Shown here in pieces: positions 46,115-63,866 of a DNA stretch of 64,000 nt; within the stretch, counting starts at the first letter, position 1; each line of letters opens with the position of its first letter. Below the pieces are notes generated by a model, which was not told the DNA's origin, did no database searches, and saw only the letters and a list, made by a program, of their open reading frames with translations. Origin of the DNA: Herpetosiphon sp. NSE202 (GTDB taxonomy: Bacteria > Chloroflexota > Chloroflexia > Chloroflexales > Herpetosiphonaceae). The position numbers and the translations under genes are program-made. The stretch spans positions 194,110-258,109 of the forward strand of contig NZ_JBHUPY010000007.1 in NCBI RefSeq assembly GCF_042688385.1, given 5' to 3'.

Positions 46115-47335
46115 CTATAAAATCGGCCACAGTGGCGAGAGCACCAGCTCGGCAGCCTTGGTATACCAAGGACGCTTAATCCATTCGGCCAAGGTCAATT
46201 CGCGGGCATTGGTCATATCGCAGGCAAAAATGGCTTCCATGCGTTCAGCAAAGGCCGCATTGTAAATTTCAAGATTAATTTCGTGGTTGCCCGCCAAACT
46301 CAGCCGATCAAGATTGGCCGTGCCAACCGTCGACCAAATGCCATCAATCGTCGCTGTTTTGGCATGAATCATGGCGTTTTCATACAGAAAAATTTTAATT
46401 CCATGGCGCAAGCAAAATTCAAAATAATGGCGCGCCAGCCAATCAGCCAACACATGGTTCGATTCAGCTGGCACCAAAATCCGCACATCAACCCCACGCC
46501 GCGCAGTGAGCACCAAAGCCTCTAAAATTGCCCGATCAGGAATAAAATAGGCATTGCTGATGTAGACAAAACGCTCAGCTCGTTCAATTGCATCGAGATA
46601 CATCGAACGAATTGGAAACACCAAACGCCCAGCATCGTTGCGTTGCACCCGCACCGTCGATTGCCATTCCAAATCAAGGTCGATGTTGAGCCGAGGCAAG
46701 CGCCGCCGATAGCGATTCCATTGCGAGGCAAACATCTCGGCCAAATTGCGCACAATCGGCCCACGCACTTGCACATGGGTGTCGCGCCACTCGGTGCGAT
46801 ACAATTCGCCTAAATTGTAGCCCCCAATAAAGGCTACGTCATTATCGACAACCAACAGTTTGCGATGGTCACGTGCATACGAACCAATATCGAAAATTTG
46901 CGATAAGCGCGGAAAAGCAGGATAGGTCAACAAGTGAATTTCAGCAGGAAACTTTTTGAATTTACGCGGCACCACCAAATTCGCAAACCCATCGACAATC
47001 ACATACACGGCCACGCCGCTATGGGCTTTGCGCATCAAAGCATCGCGAAATTTTTGGCCTAATTCATCGCCTTTGAAAATAAAGGTTTCAAGCAAAATCA
47101 AGCGTTGTGCCGATTCAATAGCCTGCAACATCGCCGGAAATAGCTCTTCGCCCGACATATACAACTGAAATTCATGGCGATCGTCGCTGGTTGGCGGCAG
47201 GCTAATCCGTGGGTAGCGCTTATAGGTAGTTGGTCGCCATTTGCGCACGCCAATCAACAAAAAAGCCAAGCTCACTTGGAGTACCACGATTACCACCAGC
47301 ATCGTTATCAGATCTTGAAATGATTCAAATGGCAT
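46115..47335 (-). CDS. cls: Cardiolipin synthase / phospholipase D family
   Basis: Two HKD motifs (HRKLLVVDNDVAFIGGYNLG and HAKTATIDGIWSTVGTANLD). N-terminal TM. Confidence 0.8.
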   Translation of the reverse strand: MPFESFQDLITMLVVIVVLQVSLAFLLIGVRKWRPTTYKRYPRISLPPTSDDRHEFQLYMSGEELFPAMLQAIESAQRLILLETFIFKGDELGQKFRDALMRKAHSGVAVYVIVDGFANLVVPRKFKKFPAEIHLLTYPAFPRLSQIFDIGSYARDHRKLLVVDNDVAFIGGYNLGELYRTEWRDTHVQVRGPIVRNLAEMFASQWNRYRRRLPRLNIDLDLEWQSTVRVQRNDAGRLVFPIRSMYLDAIERAERFVYISNAYFIPDRAILEALVLTARRGVDVRILVPAESNHVLADWLARHYFEFCLRHGIKIFLYENAMIHAKTATIDGIWSTVGTANLDRLSLAGNHEINLEIYNAAFAERMEAIFACDMTNARELTLAEWIKRPWYTKAAELVLSPLWPIL

Positions 47336-54179: not shown

Positions 54180-54540
54180 AGCCGTCTCCTTTTTGCGCAG
54201 TACAACCAGTCGATGTTGTCTAGGTTTTGTCCATATTCTGTATAAAAATAATACAAGCTGGAACAAATATATTTTCTAGCAGGCTTGATTGCAGGCATCG
54301 ACGTAAGAAAAATGACAACTGTATTATGGCCGCAATTGGATGTATCCGTCTATGATATGTCAATACTCTTTATGGCTATGCAGGGGTAAGGTAACGATTG
54401 GGATGGAAGTACTAGAAGACGTTTCCATGGAGAGGATCGCAGGTATAACGTGCTAGGTTGATTGAACCATGCCTAAGAGGGGTTTGTCAAGATGGGATAC
54501 AATAGCCACGATCTGCGGTTTTTTTAGTATTGAGGTTGTT

Positions 54541-55161
54541 ATGGGCTTACATGTATCATCGCATCCATTGGTTTTACATAAATTGGCGTTACTGCGACGC
54601 GTCGAGAGCGAACCAAAGAAATTCCGCGAATTGGTGCGCGAAATTTCGCAATTTTTGGTCTATGAAGCAACTGCCGATATGCCGCTTGCGCCCTATACCA
54701 TTCAGACCCCTTTAGGCTCGATGGAAGGCCACGCCATCGGCGCACGCATTGGCTTGATTCCGATTTTGCGGGCTGGCTTGGGCATGGTCGAGCCAGTGAT
54801 TGACCTCTTGCCAACCGCCCACGTCTGGCATTTAGGCCTGTATCGCGACCATAACTCGCTTGAGCCAGTTACCTACTATAACAAATTACCAGCCCAACCT
54901 GATATTGATGTGTGTTTGATTCTCGACCCAATGTTGGCAACTGGTGGCTCAGCAGTTGCTGCGGTTGATATTTTGAAGGCTTGGGGCGCTGCCAAGATTA
55001 AATTCTTGGGGTTAATCGCCGCACCTGAAGGGGTAGAACGCTTGCAAAACGCTCACCCCGACGTGGAAATTCATTTGGCAGCGCTTGACGAACGCTTGAA
55101 CGAGCAAGGCTATATCGTGCCCGGCTTGGGCGATGCAGGTGACCGCCAATTTGGAACGTAG
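54541..55161 (+). CDS. upp: Uracil phosphoribosyltransferase
   Basis: [12 protein letters not shown]...[12 protein letters not shown]...[24 protein letters not shown]-binding motif. Confidence 0.85.
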
Positions 55162-55167
55162 GCAAGA

Positions 55168-56148
55168 ATGCGCATTTTAGTAACTGGGGCAACTGGTTTT
55201 TTGGGTTCGCACACCGCTTTGGCCCTGCACAAAGCTGGGCATACGGTGCTGGGCTTGGGTCGCCGCTGGCAGCAGGTTCCACAGCTTGTGAACGCTGGCA
55301 TTAAGCCAATTACTGCTGATTTACGCGAGCGCGATGCAGTGATTGCGGCCTGCGCTGACTGCGATCTGGTGGTGCATAGCGGGGCACTTTCGGCACCGTG
55401 GGGCAGTCGCCGCGATTTTCAGGCGATTAACGTTGACGGAACGGCCCATGTGCTGGCTGGTTGTGCTGCGCACAATGTTGGACGCTTGGTGTTTATCTCA
55501 TCACCAAGCGTTCTTTCCAATGGCCATGATCAGCTGGATTTAGTCGATACTGCGCCCTATCCGGCGCGGCCAATCTCGCTCTATTCAGCCAGCAAACAGC
55601 AGGCCGAGCAGTTGGTGCTGACCCATGCAACGCCAAGCGTCATTTTGCGGCCCAAGGCGATTTTTGGCGAGGGCGATCAAGCGTTGTTGCCACGAATTAT
55701 TGCGGCAGCACGGGCTGGGCGCTTACGCCAATTTGGCGCTGGTCAAAATCTGGTTGATTTGACCTATGTGGAAAATGTGGTGCATGCAATTGAGCTGGCG
55801 TTAACTGCACCAGCGGCGCTTGGCAAGGCCTACACAATCACCAACGCCGAGCATCCGCAACTGTGGGCGGTCATTCGGCGGGTGCTGGCTGAGTTGGGCG
55901 TGAAGAGCGATTTACGGCCAATGCCCTTGCCTGTGGCCCTGTTGATGGCACGCATAATGGAAAGTATTAGTCTGGTAACCCGCCGCGAGCCATTATTGAC
56001 GCGCTATAGCGTGTTGGCCTTGGCGCGCAGCCAAACCCATTCGATCGTTGCTGCTCAACACGATTTGGGCTATCAACCACAAATTAGCCTTGAGCTTGGC
56101 ATTCAACGCACAATCGCCGCCCTCAAACAGCCAACAAAGGTGGATTAA
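55168..56148 (+). CDS. NAD-dependent epimerase/dehydratase (extended SDR)
   Basis: MRILVTGATGFLGSHTALAL. YxxxK (YSASK). Confidence 0.75.
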   Translation: MRILVTGATGFLGSHTALALHKAGHTVLGLGRRWQQVPQLVNAGIKPITADLRERDAVIAACADCDLVVHSGALSAPWGSRRDFQAINVDGTAHVLAGCAAHNVGRLVFISSPSVLSNGHDQLDLVDTAPYPARPISLYSASKQQAEQLVLTHATPSVILRPKAIFGEGDQALLPRIIAAARAGRLRQFGAGQNLVDLTYVENVVHAIELALTAPAALGKAYTITNAEHPQLWAVIRRVLAELGVKSDLRPMPLPVALLMARIMESISLVTRREPLLTRYSVLALARSQTHSIVAAQHDLGYQPQISLELGIQRTIAALKQPTKVD

Positions 56149-56964
56149 ATGCAGGTTTTCTTGCTGGATACGGGAATTTGCCGCGTGCCAGAATATCATA
56201 TGTTGCGCGATGGCAGCAGCCAAATTATCGATTGCCATGCAGTTGTGGCCTTGATTGAGCATCCCCAGCGGGGCTGGGGCTTGTTTGATGTTGGTTATAG
56301 CCAAGCGATGCTCAGCGCAACCGAACATTTGCCGTGGTCGCTCTATCGGCGGGCTACGCCACTGCGCTTGTCGCCAGCGCTAGAAGTGATCAATCAACTG
56401 CCAAACTATGGCTTGAGCGCCGCCGATATTGGCTGGATTGTGCTTTCTCACGCGCATGCCGACCATGTAGCCGCGTTGGCCGATTTTCCGCAGGCCGATT
56501 TATATCTTTCGGCAACGGCGTTTGAGTTGGTTAGCCAAGTTCAGGGGATTAATGCTTTGCGGCGGGGCATTATTCCAAGTTTATTTCCCCAAGCTTGGCA
56601 CCAACGTCTGCATTTAATTCATACATTTAACGATCAGCCGTTGTTTGCCTTGGGCAATAGCCACGATTTGTTTGGCGATGGACTGTTGCGTTTGGTTGAA
56701 TTGCCCGGCCATGCACGCGGCCAAATTGGCATGTATGTTGCCAATCAGCGGCCAATCCTGCTGGCGGCGGATGGAGCGTGGCACTCACGGGCGATTCGCG
56801 AACAAGTGCTGCCACACCCAATTACCTATTTGATGATCGACGATGCCAAAGCTATGGCCACAACCTTGGCGCGCTTGAGTGCTTTTGCTCAAGCCTACCC
56901 TGAGGTATTGATTGTGCCTTGCCATTGCCCAGAAATCTATGCTAGCGAGGTAGCCAAGGCATGA
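56149..56964 (+). CDS. Metallo-beta-lactamase-fold hydrolase
   Basis: HAHADHV motif. Downstream His/Asp ligands. Start abuts the upstream stop. Confidence 0.7.
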   Translation: MQVFLLDTGICRVPEYHMLRDGSSQIIDCHAVVALIEHPQRGWGLFDVGYSQAMLSATEHLPWSLYRRATPLRLSPALEVINQLPNYGLSAADIGWIVLSHAHADHVAALADFPQADLYLSATAFELVSQVQGINALRRGIIPSLFPQAWHQRLHLIHTFNDQPLFALGNSHDLFGDGLLRLVELPGHARGQIGMYVANQRPILLAADGAWHSRAIREQVLPHPITYLMIDDAKAMATTLARLSAFAQAYPEVLIVPCHCPEIYASEVAKA

Positions 56965-58259
56965 GCATCAGCGATACATTAACTACAGCTTGGTATTTTG
57001 GGCGCGCACGTTGGCGTTGGCGGCTGAATCGACAGCGTTTGCGAGATTTTCAAAATACTAAAGCCCAGCAATTAATTCCGTGGGTGGCTCAGCATTCAGC
57101 CTTCTATCGCCAGCATTGGCAAGGCCACGACCTGCGTGATTGGCGCAATTTGCCGGTCGTCGATAAACGCTTGATGATGGCTAACTTTCGTGAATTTAAT
57201 AGCTTGGAAGTGCCAGCAGCAGCGGCCTTCGATCTAGCGCAACAAGCAGAGCAAGAGCGTGATTTTGTGCCGCGCTTGGGTGATCTGACGGTTGGGCTTT
57301 CGTCGGGCACGTCGGGCCATCGCGGCTTGTTTTTGCTTAGCCCCGCCGAGCAATTACTGTGGGTTGGCACGATTTTGGCCCGCACATTGCACCAAATCAA
57401 GCCAACCAAAATTGCCTTTTTCCTGCGTGCCAACAGCAATCTTTACCAACAATTGGGCGGGCGGTTGATTCAATTTCGCTATTTTGATTTGACTCAAGCG
57501 CTTGAGCCGCAGCTTGAAATGCTGAATACCTACCAGCCAACAATCATTGTTGCGCCGCCAGCATTGCTGTTGCAATTGCTCGCCGCAGCCCAAACTGGCG
57601 AATTGACGCATCGCCCTGAGCGCATGATTAGCGTGGCTGATGCGTTGGCCCCAGATGAACAAGCGCAACTTAGCACGTTTTTTGGCATTCCAATCGAGCA
57701 AATCTATCAAGCAACCGAAGGTTTGCTCGCCATCTCGTGTGCGCATGGCAGTTTGCACATTCAAGAGGATTTGGTGGCGCTGGATTTTGAGGATTTAGGC
57801 CAAGGCCGAGTTACGCCGTATGTCACCGATTTGTGGCGGCGCACTCAGCCGATTATTCGCTATCGATTGAACGATGTATTGCGCCTGAGTTCGCAAGCGT
57901 GCAGCTGTGGCAGCAGCTTCGCGGTGATTGAACAGATCGAGGGGCGGCGTGATGATATTTGCTACTTTACGGCACATGGTCAGCGCCAAGCAATGTTCCC
58001 TGATAGCTTGCGCCGCGCCATTCTCTTAGCGCATCCAGCAATTTTAGAATATCAAATCATCCAGCCAGCAGACGACCAGTTGCAAATCAGCTTGACCATA
58101 GCAGATACGGCGGATGCTACATTGGTTAGTACAGCGGTTGAGCAGCAGATTCAGCGTCAGCTAGCCGAATATGGTTGTAGCGCGTATCATTTGAGCATCG
58201 ATTTTGCAGCAATCGATTATGGGACGCTGAATAAACGTCGGCGTGTAATTCGGCAATGA
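56961..58259 (+). CDS. PaaK/F390-synthetase/LuxE-like adenylate-forming enzyme
   Basis: GLSSGTSGHRGLFLLS P-loop-like motif. Domain order typical of acyl-adenylate-forming PaaK superfamily. 4-nt overlap upstream. Confidence 0.55.
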   Translation: MSISDTLTTAWYFGRARWRWRLNRQRLRDFQNTKAQQLIPWVAQHSAFYRQHWQGHDLRDWRNLPVVDKRLMMANFREFNSLEVPAAAAFDLAQQAEQERDFVPRLGDLTVGLSSGTSGHRGLFLLSPAEQLLWVGTILARTLHQIKPTKIAFFLRANSNLYQQLGGRLIQFRYFDLTQALEPQLEMLNTYQPTIIVAPPALLLQLLAAAQTGELTHRPERMISVADALAPDEQAQLSTFFGIPIEQIYQATEGLLAISCAHGSLHIQEDLVALDFEDLGQGRVTPYVTDLWRRTQPIIRYRLNDVLRLSSQACSCGSSFAVIEQIEGRRDDICYFTAHGQRQAMFPDSLRRAILLAHPAILEYQIIQPADDQLQISLTIADTADATLVSTAVEQQIQRQLAEYGCSAYHLSIDFAAIDYGTLNKRRRVIRQ

Positions 58260-59509
58260 ACTATTGCATCTTGGCGCTTGGCTCGCGGGGTGATGTGCAG
58301 CCGTTTATCGCTTTGGCACGTGGTTTGCAGGCCCAAGGCCATCAAGTTGTTATCGCCGCCGCTCACGATTATCGGGCATTGGTCGAAAGCTATGCTTGTC
58401 GCTTTGCCCCTTTGATTGGCTCGATTCAAGCTTTGCTTGACCCTGAGCAGATGGCAGCGGGCTTGGCAGCAGGTCGCGGCGCAATTATCAAACAATTTCT
58501 CCAACAAACGCCGCCACTTATTCAGCAATTAATCGCCGATGCCTTGGCAGCCTGTCGTGATGCAGATTGTTTGATCGTGGCGAGTTTAGGGTTCTGGCCT
58601 GCTTTACATCTCGCTGAGCATTTGCAAATTCCGGTGGTGGTGGTGCATATGCATCCGTATGGCGCTAGCAGCCAAACGGCGCATCATTTTATGCCCCAAT
58701 TGACTTGGCCCATCTATCGCCGCATGAGCTATGTGCTAGCCGAACAGGTGCAATGGCAAGTGCTGCGTATGGCCTTTAACCAAGCACGCCAGCAGATTTT
58801 GCAACGGCCAAGCCTGAGTGTCGGCCAACTTTGGCAACGTAGCCGCCAGTTTCAACCGCCAAGTTTATATGCCTATAGCGCCTTGGTTGCGCCGCCGCCT
58901 GCAAACTGGCAGAACGCTGGTGCGATTACCGGCTATTGGATGCTCGAACCAGCAGCAAACTGGCAAGCGCCAGCGGCAGTGCGTGATTTTCTGGCAGCAG
59001 GCCCAGCCCCAATCGCCGTGAGTTTTGGCAGTATGATCCATGGCCAAGAGCGCGGCGCAGCATTAAGCCAATTGCTGATTGCAGCCAGCCAAAAAGCCAA
59101 CCTGCGCTTGATTATCAACCAAGGTTGGGGCGATTTGGGCCAAGGTCAGTTGCCAAGCAATTGCCTAGCCGCTACTGGCTTGGATTATGCTTGGCTGTTT
59201 GAGCGCGTTGCGGCGGTGGTGCATCATGGCGGCGCGGGCGTAACCGCAACCGCGTTGCAGGCAGCCAAGCCAGCCTTGGTCACGCCATTTTTGGGCGACC
59301 AATATTTTTGGGGCCAACGGGTGTATGCTTTAAAAACTGGGCCTGCGCCTGTGCCAGCCAATCGATTGCAGATTGATCGTTTGGCGCAACTGTTGCGCAG
59401 CTTGAGCGAACGCACTGATTATCACCAAGCAGCCCAACAGCTTGCCAGCACATTAGCCGCTGAACATGGCGTACAGCAAGCCATCGCATGGCTAGAGCAA
59501 CGGTTTTGA
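58256..59509 (+). CDS. GT1-family (MGT/UDP-glycosyltransferase-like) glycosyltransferase
   Basis: N-terminal ILALGSRGDVQPFIALARGL. C-terminal HHGGAGVTATAL donor-binding motif. Confidence 0.75.
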   Translation: MNYCILALGSRGDVQPFIALARGLQAQGHQVVIAAAHDYRALVESYACRFAPLIGSIQALLDPEQMAAGLAAGRGAIIKQFLQQTPPLIQQLIADALAACRDADCLIVASLGFWPALHLAEHLQIPVVVVHMHPYGASSQTAHHFMPQLTWPIYRRMSYVLAEQVQWQVLRMAFNQARQQILQRPSLSVGQLWQRSRQFQPPSLYAYSALVAPPPANWQNAGAITGYWMLEPAANWQAPAAVRDFLAAGPAPIAVSFGSMIHGQERGAALSQLLIAASQKANLRLIINQGWGDLGQGQLPSNCLAATGLDYAWLFERVAAVVHHGGAGVTATALQAAKPALVTPFLGDQYFWGQRVYALKTGPAPVPANRLQIDRLAQLLRSLSERTDYHQAAQQLASTLAAEHGVQQAIAWLEQRF

Positions 59510-59533
59510 ACTTTTTAATTACGAGGTAGTACT

Positions 59534-60520
59534 ATGCAGTTTCCTCTGCGCATCGCCGGCATCGGCGCTTACGTTCCAGCAACCATCGTTACCACCAGCG
59601 ACTTGGCCGAGCGCTTTGGGGTTGATTCCAGCATCATTGAGCGCACCACGGGCATTACCGAGCGCCGTTATGCGGTGGAAGAAACTGCCTTGACGATGGC
59701 GGTTCAAGCCTCACAACAAGCGCTAGCCGATGCCAAGTACGAGCTTGATAGTATCGATTTGATTGTGGTGGCTGCGGCAGGCATGCATCAATACATTCCA
59801 TGTACCGCTGCTTTGTTGCAAAAGGCTTTACAAGCACCAGCGGGCCGCAGCGCATGTTTCGATTTAAACGCTACCTGTTTAAGTTTTCTGTTTGGCTTGC
59901 AAGTGTTAGCACCCCTGATTGCCAGCGGAGTGTATCAACGGGTGCTGTTAGTCAGCACCGAACGCGCTTCGGTTGCGCTCGACCCCAACGAATGGCAATC
60001 GACAGCGCTGTTTGGCGATGCCGCTGCCGCCGTTATTTTGGAGCGTGGCGATGGCAGCAGCAGCCTCGAACGGAGCCAATTTACAACATGGAGCAATGGT
60101 AGCGATTTGATTCAAATTCGCGGCGGCGGCTCAAACCAGCATCCCAATGCAGCCACTACCACGCCCGACATGAATTGGTTTTCAATGCAAGGGCCGCTAG
60201 CATTTCGCTTTGTGTTTCGTGAGCTTCAGCAATTTGTAAAGCAATTTTTAGTCGATCTTGGCTGGCAAAATCACGAAGTCGATGCTTTGATTCCACATCA
60301 AGCCAACCGTCATGCAATTGAGCAAGTGCAAGTTCGCTTGGGCTTTACAGCTGATCAAGTGATTAGCAATTTTGCCAAACGTGGTAATTGTGTTGCCGCC
60401 TCAATTCCCTTAGCGTTGGCCGAAGCTGTCGCCGAGGGCCGCATCCAACGCGGCAATCGGTTGGTGCTGCTTGGCTCGGGCGCTGGCATCACCTTGGGCG
60501 TAGTGGCCTTAATTTACTAG
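59534..60520 (+). CDS. FabH-like 3-oxoacyl-ACP synthase III (KASIII)
   Basis: Catalytic triad contexts: CFDLNATCLSF (Cys), IPHQANRH (His), GNCVAAS (Asn). Confidence 0.8.
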   Translation: MQFPLRIAGIGAYVPATIVTTSDLAERFGVDSSIIERTTGITERRYAVEETALTMAVQASQQALADAKYELDSIDLIVVAAAGMHQYIPCTAALLQKALQAPAGRSACFDLNATCLSFLFGLQVLAPLIASGVYQRVLLVSTERASVALDPNEWQSTALFGDAAAAVILERGDGSSSLERSQFTTWSNGSDLIQIRGGGSNQHPNAATTTPDMNWFSMQGPLAFRFVFRELQQFVKQFLVDLGWQNHEVDALIPHQANRHAIEQVQVRLGFTADQVISNFAKRGNCVAASIPLALAEAVAEGRIQRGNRLVLLGSGAGITLGVVALIY

Positions 60521-60523
60521 GAA

Positions 60524-61276
60524 TTGGCAATGGTTGTGTTGATTACTGGGGCTGGCACTGGCCTTGGTCAGGCCATGGCGCTGGCCTTGGCCAAACGGGG
60601 CGCAACAATTATTCTGGTTGGCCGCCGCCGCGAAAAGCTGGCCCATAGTGCTGGCTTGATTACCCAGGCTGGCAGCCAAGCGTGGCCAATTGTTTGCGAT
60701 CTAAGCGATCAGCAGGCGGTGGAAACACTCGCCAAACAGATTAAACACCGCTATCTTCAGCTCGATTTAATCATTCATAATGCAGCAATCCTCGCTGGCG
60801 GAGCTTTTGAACAGCTGCCTGAACAGCACATTTTAGCTGCAATCAATGCCAATCTTGTATCGCCAATTTTGCTTACCCGCCAACTTTTGCCCAAAGCAAT
60901 CTTGATTGTTGGCAGCACGGTCAGTAGGGTTGCCATGCCCGGCGCAAGCCTGTATAGCTTGAGCAAAGCGGCGCTTGAGGCATGGGCCTTGGCGCTCGCC
61001 GCTGAAACCACAATCAAGGTTGTGCGGGCCTATCCGCCTGCCAGCAAAACCGCAATGACCGCCGCCATGGCCCAACAAAGCGGCCAGCGTTTTCCCCTAG
61101 CCGAGCCAAACCAGGTAGGCGAGCACATTATTCGGCGCTATTTGGCGGGCGAAAGCGAAATTATACTGAGTATCAATGATCGATTGCTTTTTTGGCTGCA
61201 ACGCTACAGCCCAAAACTGCTCCATGCATTGCTCAAACGCTATCATCGCCAGCTGATCAAGCTGTGGAGTTCCTAG
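60524..61276 (+). CDS. Short-chain dehydrogenase/reductase (SDR)
   Basis: TGAGTGLG cofactor motif. YSLSK catalytic YxxxK. Confidence 0.75.
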   Translation: MAMVVLITGAGTGLGQAMALALAKRGATIILVGRRREKLAHSAGLITQAGSQAWPIVCDLSDQQAVETLAKQIKHRYLQLDLIIHNAAILAGGAFEQLPEQHILAAINANLVSPILLTRQLLPKAILIVGSTVSRVAMPGASLYSLSKAALEAWALALAAETTIKVVRAYPPASKTAMTAAMAQQSGQRFPLAEPNQVGEHIIRRYLAGESEIILSINDRLLFWLQRYSPKLLHALLKRYHRQLIKLWSS

Positions 61277-61285
61277 CGCAAGCAT

Positions 61286-61314
61286 TTGACAAACCAAAGC
61301 GAGCCGACTACAAT
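61286..61314 (+). promoter_or_regulatory. Consensus-like sigma-70 promoter for the peptide ABC transporter operon
   Basis: TTGACA-17 nt-TACAAT. Confidence 0.6.
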
Positions 61315-61365
61315 TGCCACCTTGTTGATACTTAATATCAATAACTAATAATGAAAGGTTTGGCA

Positions 61366-62919
61366 ATGCGGCGTTTTGGTGCTCAGCTTTTAGGGCTAAT
61401 TCTGCTTATACATCTGTTAATCGCCTGTGGCACAGCCAGCGAAACAGCTCAACCCACAACTTCGACGAATGCAGCGAGCGAGCAAACGGCCAATTCCAAC
61501 GGCGTGTTGCGAATTGGTACCGGTATCAATTTGCCAGTTGGCTTGAATGTAGCGCAAGGCTCCACTGGCTACAACATGGTGACCTATGGCGCGGGCGAAA
61601 CCCTGATGCGCTTTACTGTTGATAATAAGCTTGAGCCGTGGTTGGCTGAAAGCGTCAGCGCGCTCGATGCTACGACGTGGCAAATTAAATTGCGCCAAGG
61701 CGTACGCTTTCATGATGGCAGCGAACTCAAGGCTAGCGATGTAGTTACTTCATTCAACAGTAGCTGGCAAAACTTGAGTGCCGCCAAAAACTTCATTCCT
61801 GCAGATAGCAAAACCACAGTGATTGATGATTACACCCTCATCTTGAGCACCAGCCAAGCTGAAGGCAGCGTGCCCTATAGCCTTGCCAACTGGAATTTCG
61901 TCATTCACAAGCCTGCAGTCAATGGAATTTCGGTGTTGACTGGCATGTATCAGCCGATGAGTCTCGAAAAAGACCAAGAATTGGTGCTCGAACGCTTTGC
62001 TAATTATTGGGATGGTCAGGCAGGCCTGCAAAAAATCAGCGTCAAGAAAATTCCCGATGCCAATGCCCGTTCTTTGGCTTTGCAAAGCGGCGATTTGGAT
62101 CTGTTGACCAACGTCGCGCCTGATTTGGCCAGCGGCCTACCAGCAGATATTGAGCTTCAGAGCGTTGCTGGCACGCGCATGCATTATGTTATGTTAGATA
62201 GTGCCTATCCGCCATTTGATGATCGTTTGGTGCGCCAAGCCATGACCTTGGCAATCGATCGCCAAGCCTTGTTGCAAGCGACACTTGATGGCCAAGGTGC
62301 TGTGGCAACCAATCTTTATCCAGCAAGTGTTGGGATTGAACTTGTCGAAGCCCAAATTTTTGATCCTGCCCAAGCTGCCAAATTGCTTGACCAAGCGGGC
62401 TGGGTTGTCGGCAGCGATGGCATGCGCAGAAAAAATGGCCAAGCATTGGCTTTTACCTTGCACAGCTACCCAGGTCGCGCCGAAATCACCATGATGGCAA
62501 TCGCGATTCAAGCCCAATTGAAAGAGCTTGGGATTGCGGTTGAGGTCAAGGAAGTGACCGATATTGGCGAAATCGTCGAAAAAGGCAACTTCAACGCCAG
62601 TATGTATTCAATCGGCACCTCGCCAGATCCCCAATATACCGTTGGCACAACGCTGATTAAAGGTGCGGCCTACAACTATGCTGGCTATAGCAACCCAGCA
62701 ATTGAAAGCGCCTTTGCAGAATTGCGCGCCGAGCAAGACCATGTCAAACGGATCACAATTGCCAAGCGGATTCAAACCGAAGTCAAAAATGATCCAGTGA
62801 ATATCTATCTTGCCAGCCCGCCGCTGATTACGGCCTATCGCAAGGGCAGCCTCAGCGGCTATGTGCCCAATCCCAATGATGTGTATTTGATCACCAAGGA
62901 ATTGAAACTCAATCAATGA
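61366..62919 (+). CDS. ABC transporter substrate-binding lipoprotein, family 5 (oligopeptide/dipeptide/nickel type). Alternative start at 61351.
   Basis: Lipobox LLIACG. SBP_bac_5 architecture. RBS GAAAGG before the 61366 ATG. Confidence 0.8.
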   Translation: MRRFGAQLLGLILLIHLLIACGTASETAQPTTSTNAASEQTANSNGVLRIGTGINLPVGLNVAQGSTGYNMVTYGAGETLMRFTVDNKLEPWLAESVSALDATTWQIKLRQGVRFHDGSELKASDVVTSFNSSWQNLSAAKNFIPADSKTTVIDDYTLILSTSQAEGSVPYSLANWNFVIHKPAVNGISVLTGMYQPMSLEKDQELVLERFANYWDGQAGLQKISVKKIPDANARSLALQSGDLDLLTNVAPDLASGLPADIELQSVAGTRMHYVMLDSAYPPFDDRLVRQAMTLAIDRQALLQATLDGQGAVATNLYPASVGIELVEAQIFDPAQAAKLLDQAGWVVGSDGMRRKNGQALAFTLHSYPGRAEITMMAIAIQAQLKELGIAVEVKEVTDIGEIVEKGNFNASMYSIGTSPDPQYTVGTTLIKGAAYNYAGYSNPAIESAFAELRAEQDHVKRITIAKRIQTEVKNDPVNIYLASPPLITAYRKGSLSGYVPNPNDVYLITKELKLNQ

Positions 62920-63866
62920 GTAGCTTGCTCCGCCAAATTGCTGGGCGCATGCTAAGCGGGCTGATCGTCTTATGGATGGTCAGCGTGCTGGCTTTTCTGA
63001 TTATTCATGCTGCCCCAGGCGACCCAGCCCGCATGCTGTTGAATGCCAACGGCCTTGACGCGCCGCCAGTCGAAGCGGTCGAGGCCAAACGGCGCGAGCT
63101 TGGCCTCGATCAACCGTTGCTCAACCAATATAGCAATTGGATTGAAGGCATTGGGCAAGGCAATTTTGGCAGCAGCTACCATTCGGGCAAGCCTGTTTGG
63201 CTGATGTATCGTGAGCGTTTGCCAGCAACCTTGATGATGGCTGGCTTGGCCTTGATGCTCTCGCTGAGCATTGCAATTCCCTTGGGCTTGCTGAGCGCAA
63301 TCAAACGCCACAGCTTATTAGATCATACGGCGCAGCTGTTGGCGGTCATTGGGGCGGCAATTCCTGGCTTTTGGATTGGCTTAGTGCTCATTTTGATTTT
63401 TGCGGCCAAACTACGTTGGTTGCCAGCTTTGGGTAGCACCACATTTAAAGGGATGTTGCTGCCAGCAATCATCTTGGCCTTGCCCAATATTGCCCTAACC
63501 TCGCGGCTCGTGCGCGCAACGACGCTCGATGTGCTGAATCAACAATACATCCTAACTGCGCGGGCCAAAGGTCGCTCGGAACATGGCTTGTTATTTGCCC
63601 ATGCCTTGCCCAATGTTGCTGCCAGTTTGATAACCCCAATTAGCCTTGAGATCGCCTTTTTGCTCACAGGGACGGTGATTATCGAGCATGTTTTTGCCTA
63701 TCCCGGGATTGGGCGTATGGCTGTTGAGGCAGCGTTAATTGGCGATATGCCAGTTTTGGGCTTGGCGGTGTTGATTGCAGGAGGAATCTATGTTGTCGCT
63801 AACTGGTGCGCTGACCTCGGTATGGCAGCGCTTGACCCACGGCTCCGCCAACATCGCCAAAGCTAA
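62916..63866 (+). CDS. ABC transporter permease (DppB/OppB-like)
   Basis: Six TM helices. EAA-like loop. ATGA overlap with the SBP gene. Confidence 0.85.
   Translation: MSSLLRQIAGRMLSGLIVLWMVSVLAFLIIHAAPGDPARMLLNANGLDAPPVEAVEAKRRELGLDQPLLNQYSNWIEGIGQGNFGSSYHSGKPVWLMYRERLPATLMMAGLALMLSLSIAIPLGLLSAIKRHSLLDHTAQLLAVIGAAIPGFWIGLVLILIFAAKLRWLPALGSTTFKGMLLPAIILALPNIALTSRLVRATTLDVLNQQYILTARAKGRSEHGLLFAHALPNVAASLITPISLEIAFLLTGTVIIEHVFAYPGIGRMAVEAALIGDMPVLGLAVLIAGGIYVVANWCADLGMAALDPRLRQHRQS

Follow-up and report, generated by a model that had tools for sequence, protein, structure and literature searches.

A 64-kb stretch of DNA from Herpetosiphon sp. NSE202 (Chloroflexota), referred to here as the window, carries six tightly packed open reading frames (ORFs) at positions 55168 to 61276, all on the plus strand, which we designate genes A to F. 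They form an orphan, widely conserved cassette in which familiar enzyme families occur in an undescribed combination and which is probably separate from housekeeping fatty acid synthesis. We consider it moderately likely that the cassette encodes a dedicated pathway in which condensation, reduction of a beta-keto acid, activation of a carboxylate, handling of a lactone or ester, and further reduction and glycosylation would lead to a glycosylated acyl-derived lipid. The product is probably a membrane or envelope glycolipid.

Organization of the operon

The six genes and their assignments are as follows (aa, amino acids).

55168-56148, plus strand: gene A, 326 aa, NAD(P)-dependent reductase of the extended short-chain dehydrogenase/reductase (SDR) or 3beta-HSD family, OleD-like; core
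56149-56964, plus strand: gene B, 271 aa, lactonase-type hydrolase with the metallo-beta-lactamase (MBL) fold; core
56961-58259, plus strand: gene C, 432 aa, PaaK/F390-type adenylate-forming enzyme, TIGR02304; core and cassette marker
58256-59509, plus strand: gene D, 417 aa, family 1 glycosyltransferase (GT1), sterol-3beta-glucosyltransferase-like; accessory
59534-60520, plus strand: gene E, 328 aa, condensing enzyme of the beta-ketoacyl-acyl carrier protein (ACP) synthase III (KASIII) type, CorB/MxnB-related clade, PRK07204-like; core
60524-61276, plus strand: gene F, 250 aa, classical SDR, starting at TTG 60524 or ATG 60530; accessory

A preliminary description of the region had reported six contiguous or overlapping plus-strand genes, and the ORF coordinates agree with it. 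The ATG of B directly follows the TAA of A, the B/C and C/D junctions are ATGA overlaps, D and E are separated by 24 nucleotides (nt) that contain a GAGGT ribosome-binding site, and the gap between E and F measures 3 nt. No internal terminator stood out within the operon in a terminator scan. The domain calls of that description (epimerase, MBL, GT1, KASIII with an intact Cys-His-Asn triad, and SDR) were likewise reproduced by Pfam and NCBIfam matches, and the catalytic motifs are intact in all six gene products.

Conservation of a four-gene core across phyla

A profile of C was searched against one genome per species and returned at least 595 relatives, of which the best 80 yielded 79 distinct loci of 17 kb (denoted by L and a number). 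Of these, 51 extended for 5 kb or more to either side of C and could be tested. On the same strand and within 7 kb, C was accompanied by A in 48, by B in 46 and by a KASIII gene in 47 of these loci, and all three partners were found together in 43. The 51 loci span at least ten phyla, the order A-B-C is almost invariant, and the clustering of A, B, C and the KASIII gene is far above chance. The synteny counts therefore resolve the six-gene operon into a conserved core of four genes (A, B, C and E) and lineage-specific additions. The six genes do constitute an operon, as first described, but they are not the unit itself: the core is smaller, and the system is larger, extending to three more genes at positions 33008 to 36211 that are treated below.

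Carriers of the core were labeled Chloroflexota, Armatimonadota, Acidobacteriota, Gemmatimonadota, Planctomycetota, Bacillota, Cyanobacteriota (including Melainabacteria and Sericytochromatia), Actinomycetota and Pseudomonadota; many of them are metagenome-assembled genomes (MAGs), so that the phylum labels depend on the quality of binning. Relatives of C also occur in Deinococcota, where the single testable locus (L046, from a Meiothermus MAG) has B and C only. Other incomplete cores were observed as well. In L011 and L066, A abuts C and leaves no room for an MBL gene, in L049 another gene lies between A and C, and in a Nostocaceae MAG (L057) only C and a FemAB-like gene were found.

The position of the KASIII gene and the accessory genes vary among lineages. 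The KASIII gene lies upstream in Ktedonobacteria, Firmicutes and Melainabacteria and downstream in Chloroflexia, Gemmatimonadota and Armatimonadota. The layout in Chloroflexia is A-B-C-GT1-KASIII-SDR, followed by an alpha/beta-hydrolase gene and two genes of glycosyltransferase family 21 (GT21), and that in Thermoanaerobaculia and Planctomycetota is GT21-KASIII-B-GT1-C. An Actinomycetota MAG and an unclassified MAG have a KASIII gene, GT21 (one gene in L061, two in L063), one further gene, and A-B-C. This further gene (4985-5866 in L061, 5077-5922 in L063) encodes a protein of about 285 aa without a Pfam match; the two copies share 52% identity and may represent another lineage-specific component. 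Overall, GT1 and/or GT21 genes are linked to the core in Chloroflexota, Acidobacteriota, Planctomycetota, the Actinomycetota MAG, Melainabacteria and Cyanobacteria. PKS (polyketide synthase) or NRPS (nonribosomal peptide synthetase) genes were not found among the annotated neighbors of the cassettes.

A second type of accessory set includes an ATP-grasp protein (NCBIfam PRK06849, annotated as hypothetical), which is encoded in the cassettes of Firmicutes, Melainabacteria and one Herpetosiphonaceae MAG. Many of these loci, including that of the Herpetosiphonaceae MAG, also encode a FemAB-like GNAT protein (PF13480), and several Firmicutes add an SDR of the PRK06914 type. The Herpetosiphonaceae locus (L010, 6100-12824) thus combines the core with the "Firmicute-type" ATP-grasp and FemAB-like GNAT genes instead of glycosyltransferases, which indicates that accessory sets move between lineages or that genomes may hold two paralogous cassettes.

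The condensing enzyme

Protein E matches the N- and C-terminal ACP_syn_III domains of Pfam and has the triad C115/H255/N285. Its top NCBIfam match was PRK07204 (292 bits against a cutoff of 402), a model that the KASIII of the Paenibacillus cassette passes (450 bits). With 238.7 bits, E stayed below the cutoff of the fabH model TIGR00747 (292.1 bits), and PRK09352, a broad model of a KASIII subfamily, was the only one it passed (266 bits; cutoff, 249). The top matches in the PDB were CorB (195 bits) and MxnB (190 bits), with FabH enzymes reaching 168 bits at most, and OleA was absent from the 41 PDB matches at an E value of ≤1e-20. OleA, DarB, PqsD and HMG-CoA synthase were each considered as identities for E and rejected, as the scores lay far below those for PRK07204, CorB and FabH.

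CorB and MxnB act as stand-alone ketosynthases: each joins two chains to form an alpha-pyrone, that of corallopyronin and that of myxopyronin, respectively. A neighbor-joining tree (100 bootstraps) of 50 cassette sequences, CorB, MxnB and three FabH-type references separated the FabH references from the cassette KASIII enzymes in 100 of 100 bootstraps. CorB and MxnB were nested within the cassette group in 96 and fell outside it in only 4, and a split between the Firmicute and Thermoanaerobaculia types on one side and the Chloroflexota types with CorB and MxnB on the other was recovered in 89. The clade of E shares with CorB and MxnB, and not with FabH, the motifs NA[ST]CLSF, GNC[IV]xAS and QxIP and the insert GGG[ST]xxHP, and the insert of E relative to FabH comprises about 15 residues. 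The preliminary description had termed E a FabH-like KASIII and had left its grouping with FabH, OleA or DarB to phylogeny; the KASIII assignment and the triad were confirmed, whereas E groups with none of these three and falls with CorB and MxnB instead.

These closest solved relatives of E share its Cys-His-Asn triad as well as the motifs, but they belong to trans-acyltransferase PKS/NRPS clusters, unlike the cassettes with their annotated neighbors described above. A further difference concerns the proline two residues after the catalytic histidine. The sequence HQPS occurs only in CorB and MxnB and the proline is missing from all cassette enzymes; E of Herpetosiphon has HQAN, as FabH does, and the other cassette KASIII enzymes have HQ[AG]S. 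In the CorB structure paper, the HQP proline was tied to nondecarboxylative chemistry (PMC5506619).

The other signature of chain-fusing enzymes, the glutamate base of OleA, PpyS and NocG, is located 24 to 26 residues ahead of the catalytic cysteine (Table 1 in PMC9486936). It is absent from E, in which residues 84 to 92 read MHQYIPCTA, and the residue ahead of the conserved proline is I, L or V in 50 of 50 cassette KASIII enzymes; this comparison was made by spacing, in an alignment without an OleA sequence. NocG, PpyS and PyrS resemble E in being stand-alone KASIII-like enzymes; they couple one fatty acyl chain to another, giving a beta-keto acid or a pyrone (PMC9486936, PMC4578411). They differ from E in their conserved glutamate base, NocG also differs in its genomic context (a fatty acyl-AMP ligase [FAAL]-ACP and an aminotransferase), and the NocG clade is separate from the CorB/MxnB clade (PMC9486936). 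As E is akin to CorB and MxnB and lacks both the proline and the glutamate, its sequence places it in a distinct KASIII subfamily that is related to chain-fusing enzymes and is not typical FabH.

The stretch around the missing glutamate is itself conserved. In the motif Q-x-I-P-C-T-A of the cassette KASIII enzymes (Q86, I88, P89 and C90 in E), the glutamine is present in 50 of 50 sequences and the cysteine at position 90 in 43 of 50, and the FabH counterpart is F-P-S-T-A. In FabH, this region is a dimer-partner loop that lines the acyl pocket.

With FabH, E has the fold, the length and the triad in common. Besides its score, tree position, motifs and insert, it differs from FabH in lying outside a fab operon, in a conserved cassette with genes foreign to fatty acid synthesis. 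Among the annotated neighbors (29.7 to 63.9 kb of the window), none of the fab genes plsX, fabD, fabG, acpP and fabF was found, and the 64-kb window contains no second KASIII gene. The compact operon in the window has no room for a dedicated ACP gene, for which the other loci were not screened.

The reductase, the lactonase-like hydrolase and the adenylate-forming enzyme

Protein A belongs to the Epimerase (134 bits) and 3Beta_HSD (121 bits) families of Pfam, with intact motifs (GATGFLG at residues 7 to 13, and Y139/K143). Its top NCBIfam matches were the two models of OleD, the 2-alkyl-3-oxoalkanoate reductase (NF042422, 233 bits; NF042423, 218 bits), which aligned over the full length at scores below the equivalog cutoff of 580 bits. 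The next family, HpnA, scored 104 bits, about 130 bits below OleD, and lesser matches were obtained to the fatty-acyl-reductase domain NAD_binding_4 (53 bits) and to the thioester reductase model TIGR01746 (61 bits). The top PDB match was sterol-4alpha-carboxylate 3-dehydrogenase (NSDHL; 6jkg). The substrates of OleD and NSDHL are both beta-keto or beta-hydroxy acids.

Protein B matches Lactamase_B in Pfam, and its top NCBIfam match was the AttM-type lactonase at 72 bits (cutoff, 390), with AiiA at 29 bits (cutoff, 375). The metal ligands H101, H103, D105, H106, H188, D208 and H259, which make up the HxHxDH motif and the distal H/D/H residues, are invariant across 22 homologues. In a Foldseek search with the AlphaFold 2 model of B (mean predicted local distance difference test [pLDDT] score, 94.5), PDB ranks 1 to 26 were all lactonases, including AhlX (template modeling score, 0.81), 4-pyridoxolactonase, GcL, AiiA and AiiB; glyoxalase II, thioesterases and nucleases were not among the top matches. 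By its model, B is a structurally lactonase-type enzyme with a complete metal site, and lactone hydrolysis is its predicted activity.

Protein C passes the model TIGR02304, "F390 synthetase-related protein," with 382 bits against a cutoff of 251.9 (aligned residues, 15 to 431), and its Pfam AMP-binding match amounts to only 30 bits (residues 165 to 266). The AlphaFold 2 model (pLDDT, 84) has the PaaK-family fold and matched BT_0428, NatL2, PaaK1/2 and 2-hydroxyisobutyryl-coenzyme A (CoA) ligase (HCL); the solved relatives are mostly CoA ligases (PaaK, BT_0428 and HCL). The adenylation motifs (the P-loop SSGTSGHRG at 114 to 122, YQATEG [YQxTEG], D290, R300 and K425) are invariant in 16 sequences. 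Of the earlier label "PaaK/LuxE-like," the PaaK half is well founded, as both the family model and the fold agree, and the LuxE half is not, since C gave no match to LuxE in Pfam at an E value of ≤1e-3.

Four cysteines of C (C260, C314, C316 and C334) are invariant in 16 diverse TIGR02304 homologues, with a CxCGS motif just past the A8 hinge. Their conservation points to a Cys4 metal site or to a cysteine that accepts an acyl group; we are aware of no description of a Cys4 feature for PaaK. The protein is 100% identical to one from Herpetosiphon sp. NSE202 and 93 to 95% identical to those of H. giganteus, H. geysericola and H. llansteffanensis. In public data, the family comprises about 1,090 representatives at 50% identity (E value, ≤1e-30).

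Accessory genes and a second locus with membrane glycosyltransferases

Protein D contains the Pfam domains EryCIII-like_C and Glyco_transf_28 and the motifs GSRGDVQP (residues 9 to 16), HHGGAG (323 to 328) and GDQ (347 to 349). Its top PDB match was the yeast sterol 3beta-glucosyltransferase UGT51 (5gl5/5xvm; 162 bits), which aligned over the full length (residues 3 to 411). Orthologues of D occupy the same position in 11 of the 51 loci, mainly in Chloroflexia, and different GT1 genes are embedded in the cassettes of Thermoanaerobaculia and Planctomycetota. Protein F is a classical SDR (adh_short, 130 bits; KR, 57 bits) with TGAGTGLG at residues 8 to 15 and Y144/K148 intact. Its orthologues (35 to 39% identity) are found after the KASIII gene in the cassettes of Chloroflexia, and 17 of the 51 loci contain an SDR gene.

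The three genes that come right after the SDR gene in Chloroflexia cassettes have counterparts in the window, 19 kb upstream of the operon and on the opposite strand:

35360-36211, minus strand: divergent alpha/beta-hydrolase-like protein; 30 to 35% identity over about 265 residues to the hydrolase after the SDR in L008, L019, L021, L026 and L027
34194-35360, minus strand: GT21a, HpnI-like GT21/GT2-type membrane glycosyltransferase; Glyco_transf_21, 75 bits; HpnI, 101 bits (cutoff, 310)
33008-34201, minus strand: GT21b, GT21/GT2-type membrane glycosyltransferase; Glyco_transf_21, 102 bits; HpnI, 99.5 bits

The gene order of the trio is identical to that in the Chloroflexia cassettes. The genes are translationally coupled, the stop codon of the alpha/beta-hydrolase-like gene overlapping the start of GT21a, and GT21b probably starts at M30 of the ORF at 33008 to 34288. 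Compared with the Roseiflexaceae cassette L008, the alpha/beta-hydrolase-like protein, GT21a and GT21b are 35%, 48.5% and 57.7% identical, respectively, and the operon genes are 39 to 62% identical to those of the same cassette. GT21b is 50 to 54% identical to its counterparts in L013, L016, L019, L021, L024, L026 and L027. The best match of each glycosyltransferase is its positional counterpart, so that a and b form separate orthology groups. Hydrophobic C-terminal segments are present in both proteins (one in GT21a; residues 316 to 343 and 378 to 399 in GT21b). By orthology and gene order, we assign the trio to the cassette system.

In the other Chloroflexia cassettes, the alpha/beta-hydrolase family matches Abhydrolase_1/6. 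The window copy had no Pfam hit at a threshold of 1e-5, its match to an enol-lactonase model reached just 19 bits, and AGSYSG takes the place of the canonical GxSxG. It may be a noncatalytic or atypical member.

D and the two GT21 proteins (about 100 bits to HpnI) thus resemble UGT51, on the one hand, and HpnI and ceramide glucosyltransferase-type GT21 enzymes, on the other, all of which glycosylate hydroxyls of membrane lipids. The likeness has its bounds, as the scores of the cassette glycosyltransferases lie far below equivalog cutoffs and genes for hopanoids, sterols or sphingolipids are absent. We also considered a pathway to hopanoids or sterols and rejected it: the HpnA, HpnI and UGT51 matches are family-level only, and neither a cyclase nor hpn genes were found among the annotated genes of the window.

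The genes between the two loci (36 to 54 kb) are unrelated; they encode a histidine kinase, VWA, LysR, an ECF sigma factor, HD, a hydrolase, AAA, PLD, MoeA, UvdE and DUF4388 proteins. The PLD-family protein (46115-47335, minus strand) has two PLDc domains and is cardiolipin synthase-like, which makes it a membrane-lipid gene product, and its gene has no synteny with cassettes elsewhere. Beside the GT21 locus, a 506-aa protein with SPFH/Band 7 and major vault protein "shoulder" domains is encoded at 31175 to 32695 (plus strand).

Proposed pathway

The preliminary description took the operon for a co-transcribed, nonhousekeeping cassette for a glycolipid or small lipid. The synteny across phyla, the recurrent linkage to glycosyltransferases and the best match of A to OleD all speak for this view. 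From the enzyme families we infer the substrates, the product and the order in which A, C and B would act in the second to fourth steps. In the first step, E would acylate Cys115 from an acyl thioester and condense the chain with a second thioester, giving either a beta-keto-acyl compound or, by fusion of the chains, a product that cyclizes. Since E lacks the glutamate base of the OleA type, the nucleophile would be malonyl-derived or an already beta-ketoacyl chain. A would then act like OleD and turn the beta-keto acid into a beta-hydroxy acid. In the third step, C would convert the carboxylate into an acyl-adenylate, which could be captured intramolecularly to form a lactone, by a logic like that of OleC, or be transferred to CoA or an acceptor hydroxyl. 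B would open or transfer the lactone or ester bond and thereby release or edit the intermediate. Finally, F would adjust another keto or hydroxyl group, and D and the two GT21 enzymes would place sugars on hydroxyls.

Several points weigh against this pathway. The literature search yielded no paper on the cassette and no product or enzyme activity for any of its members, and the record that it did yield on an F390 synthetase with FabH concerns a different, ladderane/APE-like cluster. All family matches except TIGR02304 are below the equivalog cutoff (233 of 580 bits for A, 72 of 390 for B and 292 of 402 for E). As E lacks the CorB proline and has HQAN like FabH, it may be a plain malonyl-using KASIII, and the tree that sets it apart is a neighbor-joining tree with three FabH outgroups only. 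Formation of a lactone followed by its hydrolysis would be wasteful, so that the roles of B and C could differ, for example, as a thioesterase and a CoA ligase. The GT21 trio, 19 kb away, could serve another lipid. Moreover, as Firmicutes replace the glycosyltransferases by the ATP-grasp and FemAB-like enzymes, the term "glycolipid" would not be valid for the product everywhere.

Genes and signals flanking the operon

The gene upstream of A is upp, which encodes uracil phosphoribosyltransferase (54469-55161, plus strand) and ends 6 nt before A without a terminator. The true start is probably the ATG at 54541 and not 54469, since a GAGG ribosome-binding site lies ahead of this ATG and the alignments of family models to the product begin at residue 25. 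From this spacing, upp and the cassette are probably co-transcribed, and the operon promoter would then probably lie ahead of upp. The adjacency is confined to Herpetosiphon, in 3 of the 51 loci (L001, L002 and L045).

Downstream, a gap of 74 nt separates F from a nikA-like ABC transporter operon and holds the following signal:

61286-61314, plus strand: sigma-70-like promoter TTGACA-17-TACAAT, top consensus match of the scan (11 of 12 positions); downstream boundary of the operon

Promoter-like sites were no more numerous in the scan than in shuffled sequence, and the site at 61286 is a consensus match, the sole near-perfect one. The transporter genes (61351-63866 and beyond, plus strand) encode a nikA/Opp5A-like solute-binding protein and a NikB-like permease of a nickel/peptide ABC transporter, which adjoins the cassette in other Herpetosiphon genomes too. 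Rfam gave no match in the window, nor in the eight Firmicute loci searched; hence, no riboswitch was found that would hint at a ligand. A horizontally transferred island was considered and rejected, as the GC content of the region (0.51 to 0.54) is like that of the rest of the window.

Alternative explanations

A broader reading, which we regard as doubtful, sees in the core the machinery for a lipid class that is as yet undescribed and occurs in many phyla. The lipid would be a beta-hydroxy fatty acid, formed by fusion or extension, or the lactone of this acid, decorated in a lineage-specific manner, with sugars in Chloroflexota, Acidobacteriota and Planctomycetota and with amino acids in Firmicutes and Melainabacteria. 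The TIGR02304 enzyme would represent a new lactone or ester synthetase with a dedicated MBL lactonase, and the KASIII family of the cassette would be the source from which CorB and MxnB were recruited. In a bolder variant, which is very unlikely, Chloroflexota and their relatives would use the cassette to make their nonglycerol glycolipids, namely, alkyl glycosides or glycosides of long-chain diols.

The preliminary description noted a partial parallel to the Ole pathway. In its strict form, A would reduce a 2-alkyl-3-keto acid, C would be a new type of beta-lactone synthetase, and B would replace OleB in opening or decarboxylating the lactone; the end product would be a hydrocarbon or beta-lactone and not a glycolipid. 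Indeed, the cassette unites the four roles of OleABCD, namely, a thiolase-fold condensing enzyme, a 3beta-HSD-family reductase, an adenylate-forming enzyme and a hydrolase expected to act on a lactone, so that E, A, C and B map one-to-one onto OleA, OleD, OleC and OleB. A is specifically OleD-like, E falls within the clade of the chain-fusing CorB and MxnB, B is lactonase-like, and C is adenylate-forming like OleC, in the wider ANL superfamily. However, E has no OleA among its PDB matches at an E value of ≤1e-20, and it lacks the glutamate base that is missing from all 50 cassette KASIII enzymes. C is a PaaK/F390-type enzyme of TIGR02304 with a marginal AMP-binding score, whereas OleC is a beta-lactone synthetase of the ANL type, and the slot of the alpha/beta-hydrolase OleB is filled by an MBL lactonase. 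The cassettes are also tied to glycosyltransferases, or to ATP-grasp and FemAB-like enzymes in Firmicutes, neither of which belongs to Ole pathways, and an olefin would offer no hydroxyl to the recurrent GT1 and GT21 enzymes. Membership in OleABCD thus fails for three of the four proteins that define the pathway; for the fourth, A, OleD is the top family at 233 bits against a cutoff of 580. As C is not OleC-like and B is of the MBL type, the parallel to Ole is one of logic, which stands, and not of membership, which does not. A true Ole-type route is accordingly quite improbable. Lipstatin and nocardiolactone are made by beta-lactone pathways related to Ole, and by analogy the logic of the cassette comes closest to OleABCD and lipstatin-type pathways.

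A module like luxCDE, for which we see a low probability, would distribute the roles differently: B would free an acid from its thioester, C would adenylate it, and A would reduce it to an aldehyde or alcohol, so that a long-chain alcohol or diol would be formed and converted by the glycosyltransferases into a nonglycerol alkyl or diol glycoside. The order of luxCDE is reductase, hydrolase, synthetase, and LuxE and PaaK-type enzymes are distant relatives. The invariant order A-B-C parallels that of luxCDE, whose reductase, hydrolase/transferase and adenylating synthetase likewise act on a fatty carboxylate. In addition, A has its lesser matches to NAD_binding_4 and TIGR01746, and C has its conserved cysteines. 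Diol-based glycolipids have been reported from lineages such as Chloroflexota/Roseiflexaceae and Meiothermus; the cassette occurs in Chloroflexota, including Roseiflexaceae, and a partial set of B and C occurs in the Meiothermus MAG. The formation of long-chain 1,2-diols was left unexplained in the T. roseum genome paper (PMC2615216), which may also be counted in favor of such a module. Against it, no LuxC, LuxD or LuxE family match was found in the cassette, A scores about fourfold higher on OleD than on thioester reductase models, and B groups with lactonases and not with thioesterases. The Meiothermus locus is limited to B and C, and a KASIII route to a 1,2-diol is not explained by the scheme. 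Furthermore, the core is present in Firmicutes and Melainabacteria, from which, to our knowledge, diol lipids have not been reported.

In a linear FabH-type pathway, C would make an unusual acyl-CoA starter, E would extend it once with malonyl-ACP, B would hydrolyze the thioester, A would reduce the free 3-keto acid, and the resulting 3-hydroxy acid would be glycosylated. The HQAN motif and full Cys-His-Asn triad of the Herpetosiphon enzyme, its pass of PRK09352, and the prevalence of CoA ligases among the solved relatives of C are all consistent with such a scheme, and the lack of room for an ACP gene in the window operon (the only locus screened in this respect) would fit the use of the ACP of fatty acid synthesis. 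However, the clade of E stands apart from the FabH references and has its insert and active-site motifs in common with CorB and MxnB, and B is lactonase-like and not glyoxalase II- or thioesterase-like. Cells already make 3-hydroxyacyl chains, so that an unusual starter would be needed, and nothing points to one. We therefore give this scheme little credence.

The remaining explanation, a housekeeping fabH beside unrelated genes or a catabolic or quorum-quenching set of a lactonase and an aromatic acid CoA ligase, could draw on the housekeeping gene upp just upstream, on the pass of E for PRK09352 and on the resemblance of B to N-acyl homoserine lactone (AHL) lactonases and of C to PaaK, but it is extremely unlikely and largely refuted by the cross-phylum synteny of the core, by a upp adjacency limited to Herpetosiphon, by annotated neighbors devoid of fab genes, by the score of E below the TIGR00747 cutoff, and by the recurrent glycosyltransferases and the condensing enzyme, which point to biosynthesis and not to catabolism. 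The preliminary description had named two conditions for its own refutation, a KASIII that is the only fabH of the genome and neighbors that are unrelated housekeeping genes with independent promoters; the second does not hold, the core being syntenic in 43 of the 51 loci.

Implications for Herpetosiphon and other carriers

The family of C, which marks the cassette, spans at least ten phyla, with about 1,090 representatives, and no product, activity or paper was found for it in the literature. For genome annotation, the label "beta-ketoacyl-ACP synthase III" in genomes with the cassette should not be taken as FabH. The KASIII family of the cassette also suggests an origin for the ketosynthases of the CorB and MxnB antibiotic pathways. 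Solving the cassette would assign functions to four "generic" annotations (KASIII, epimerase, MBL hydrolase and F390 synthetase-related protein) and would possibly reveal a new enzymatic route to lactones or esters. It would probably also add a new envelope lipid or signal molecule to the biology of predatory Herpetosiphon, soil Ktedonobacteria, Paenibacillus and gut Melainabacteria.

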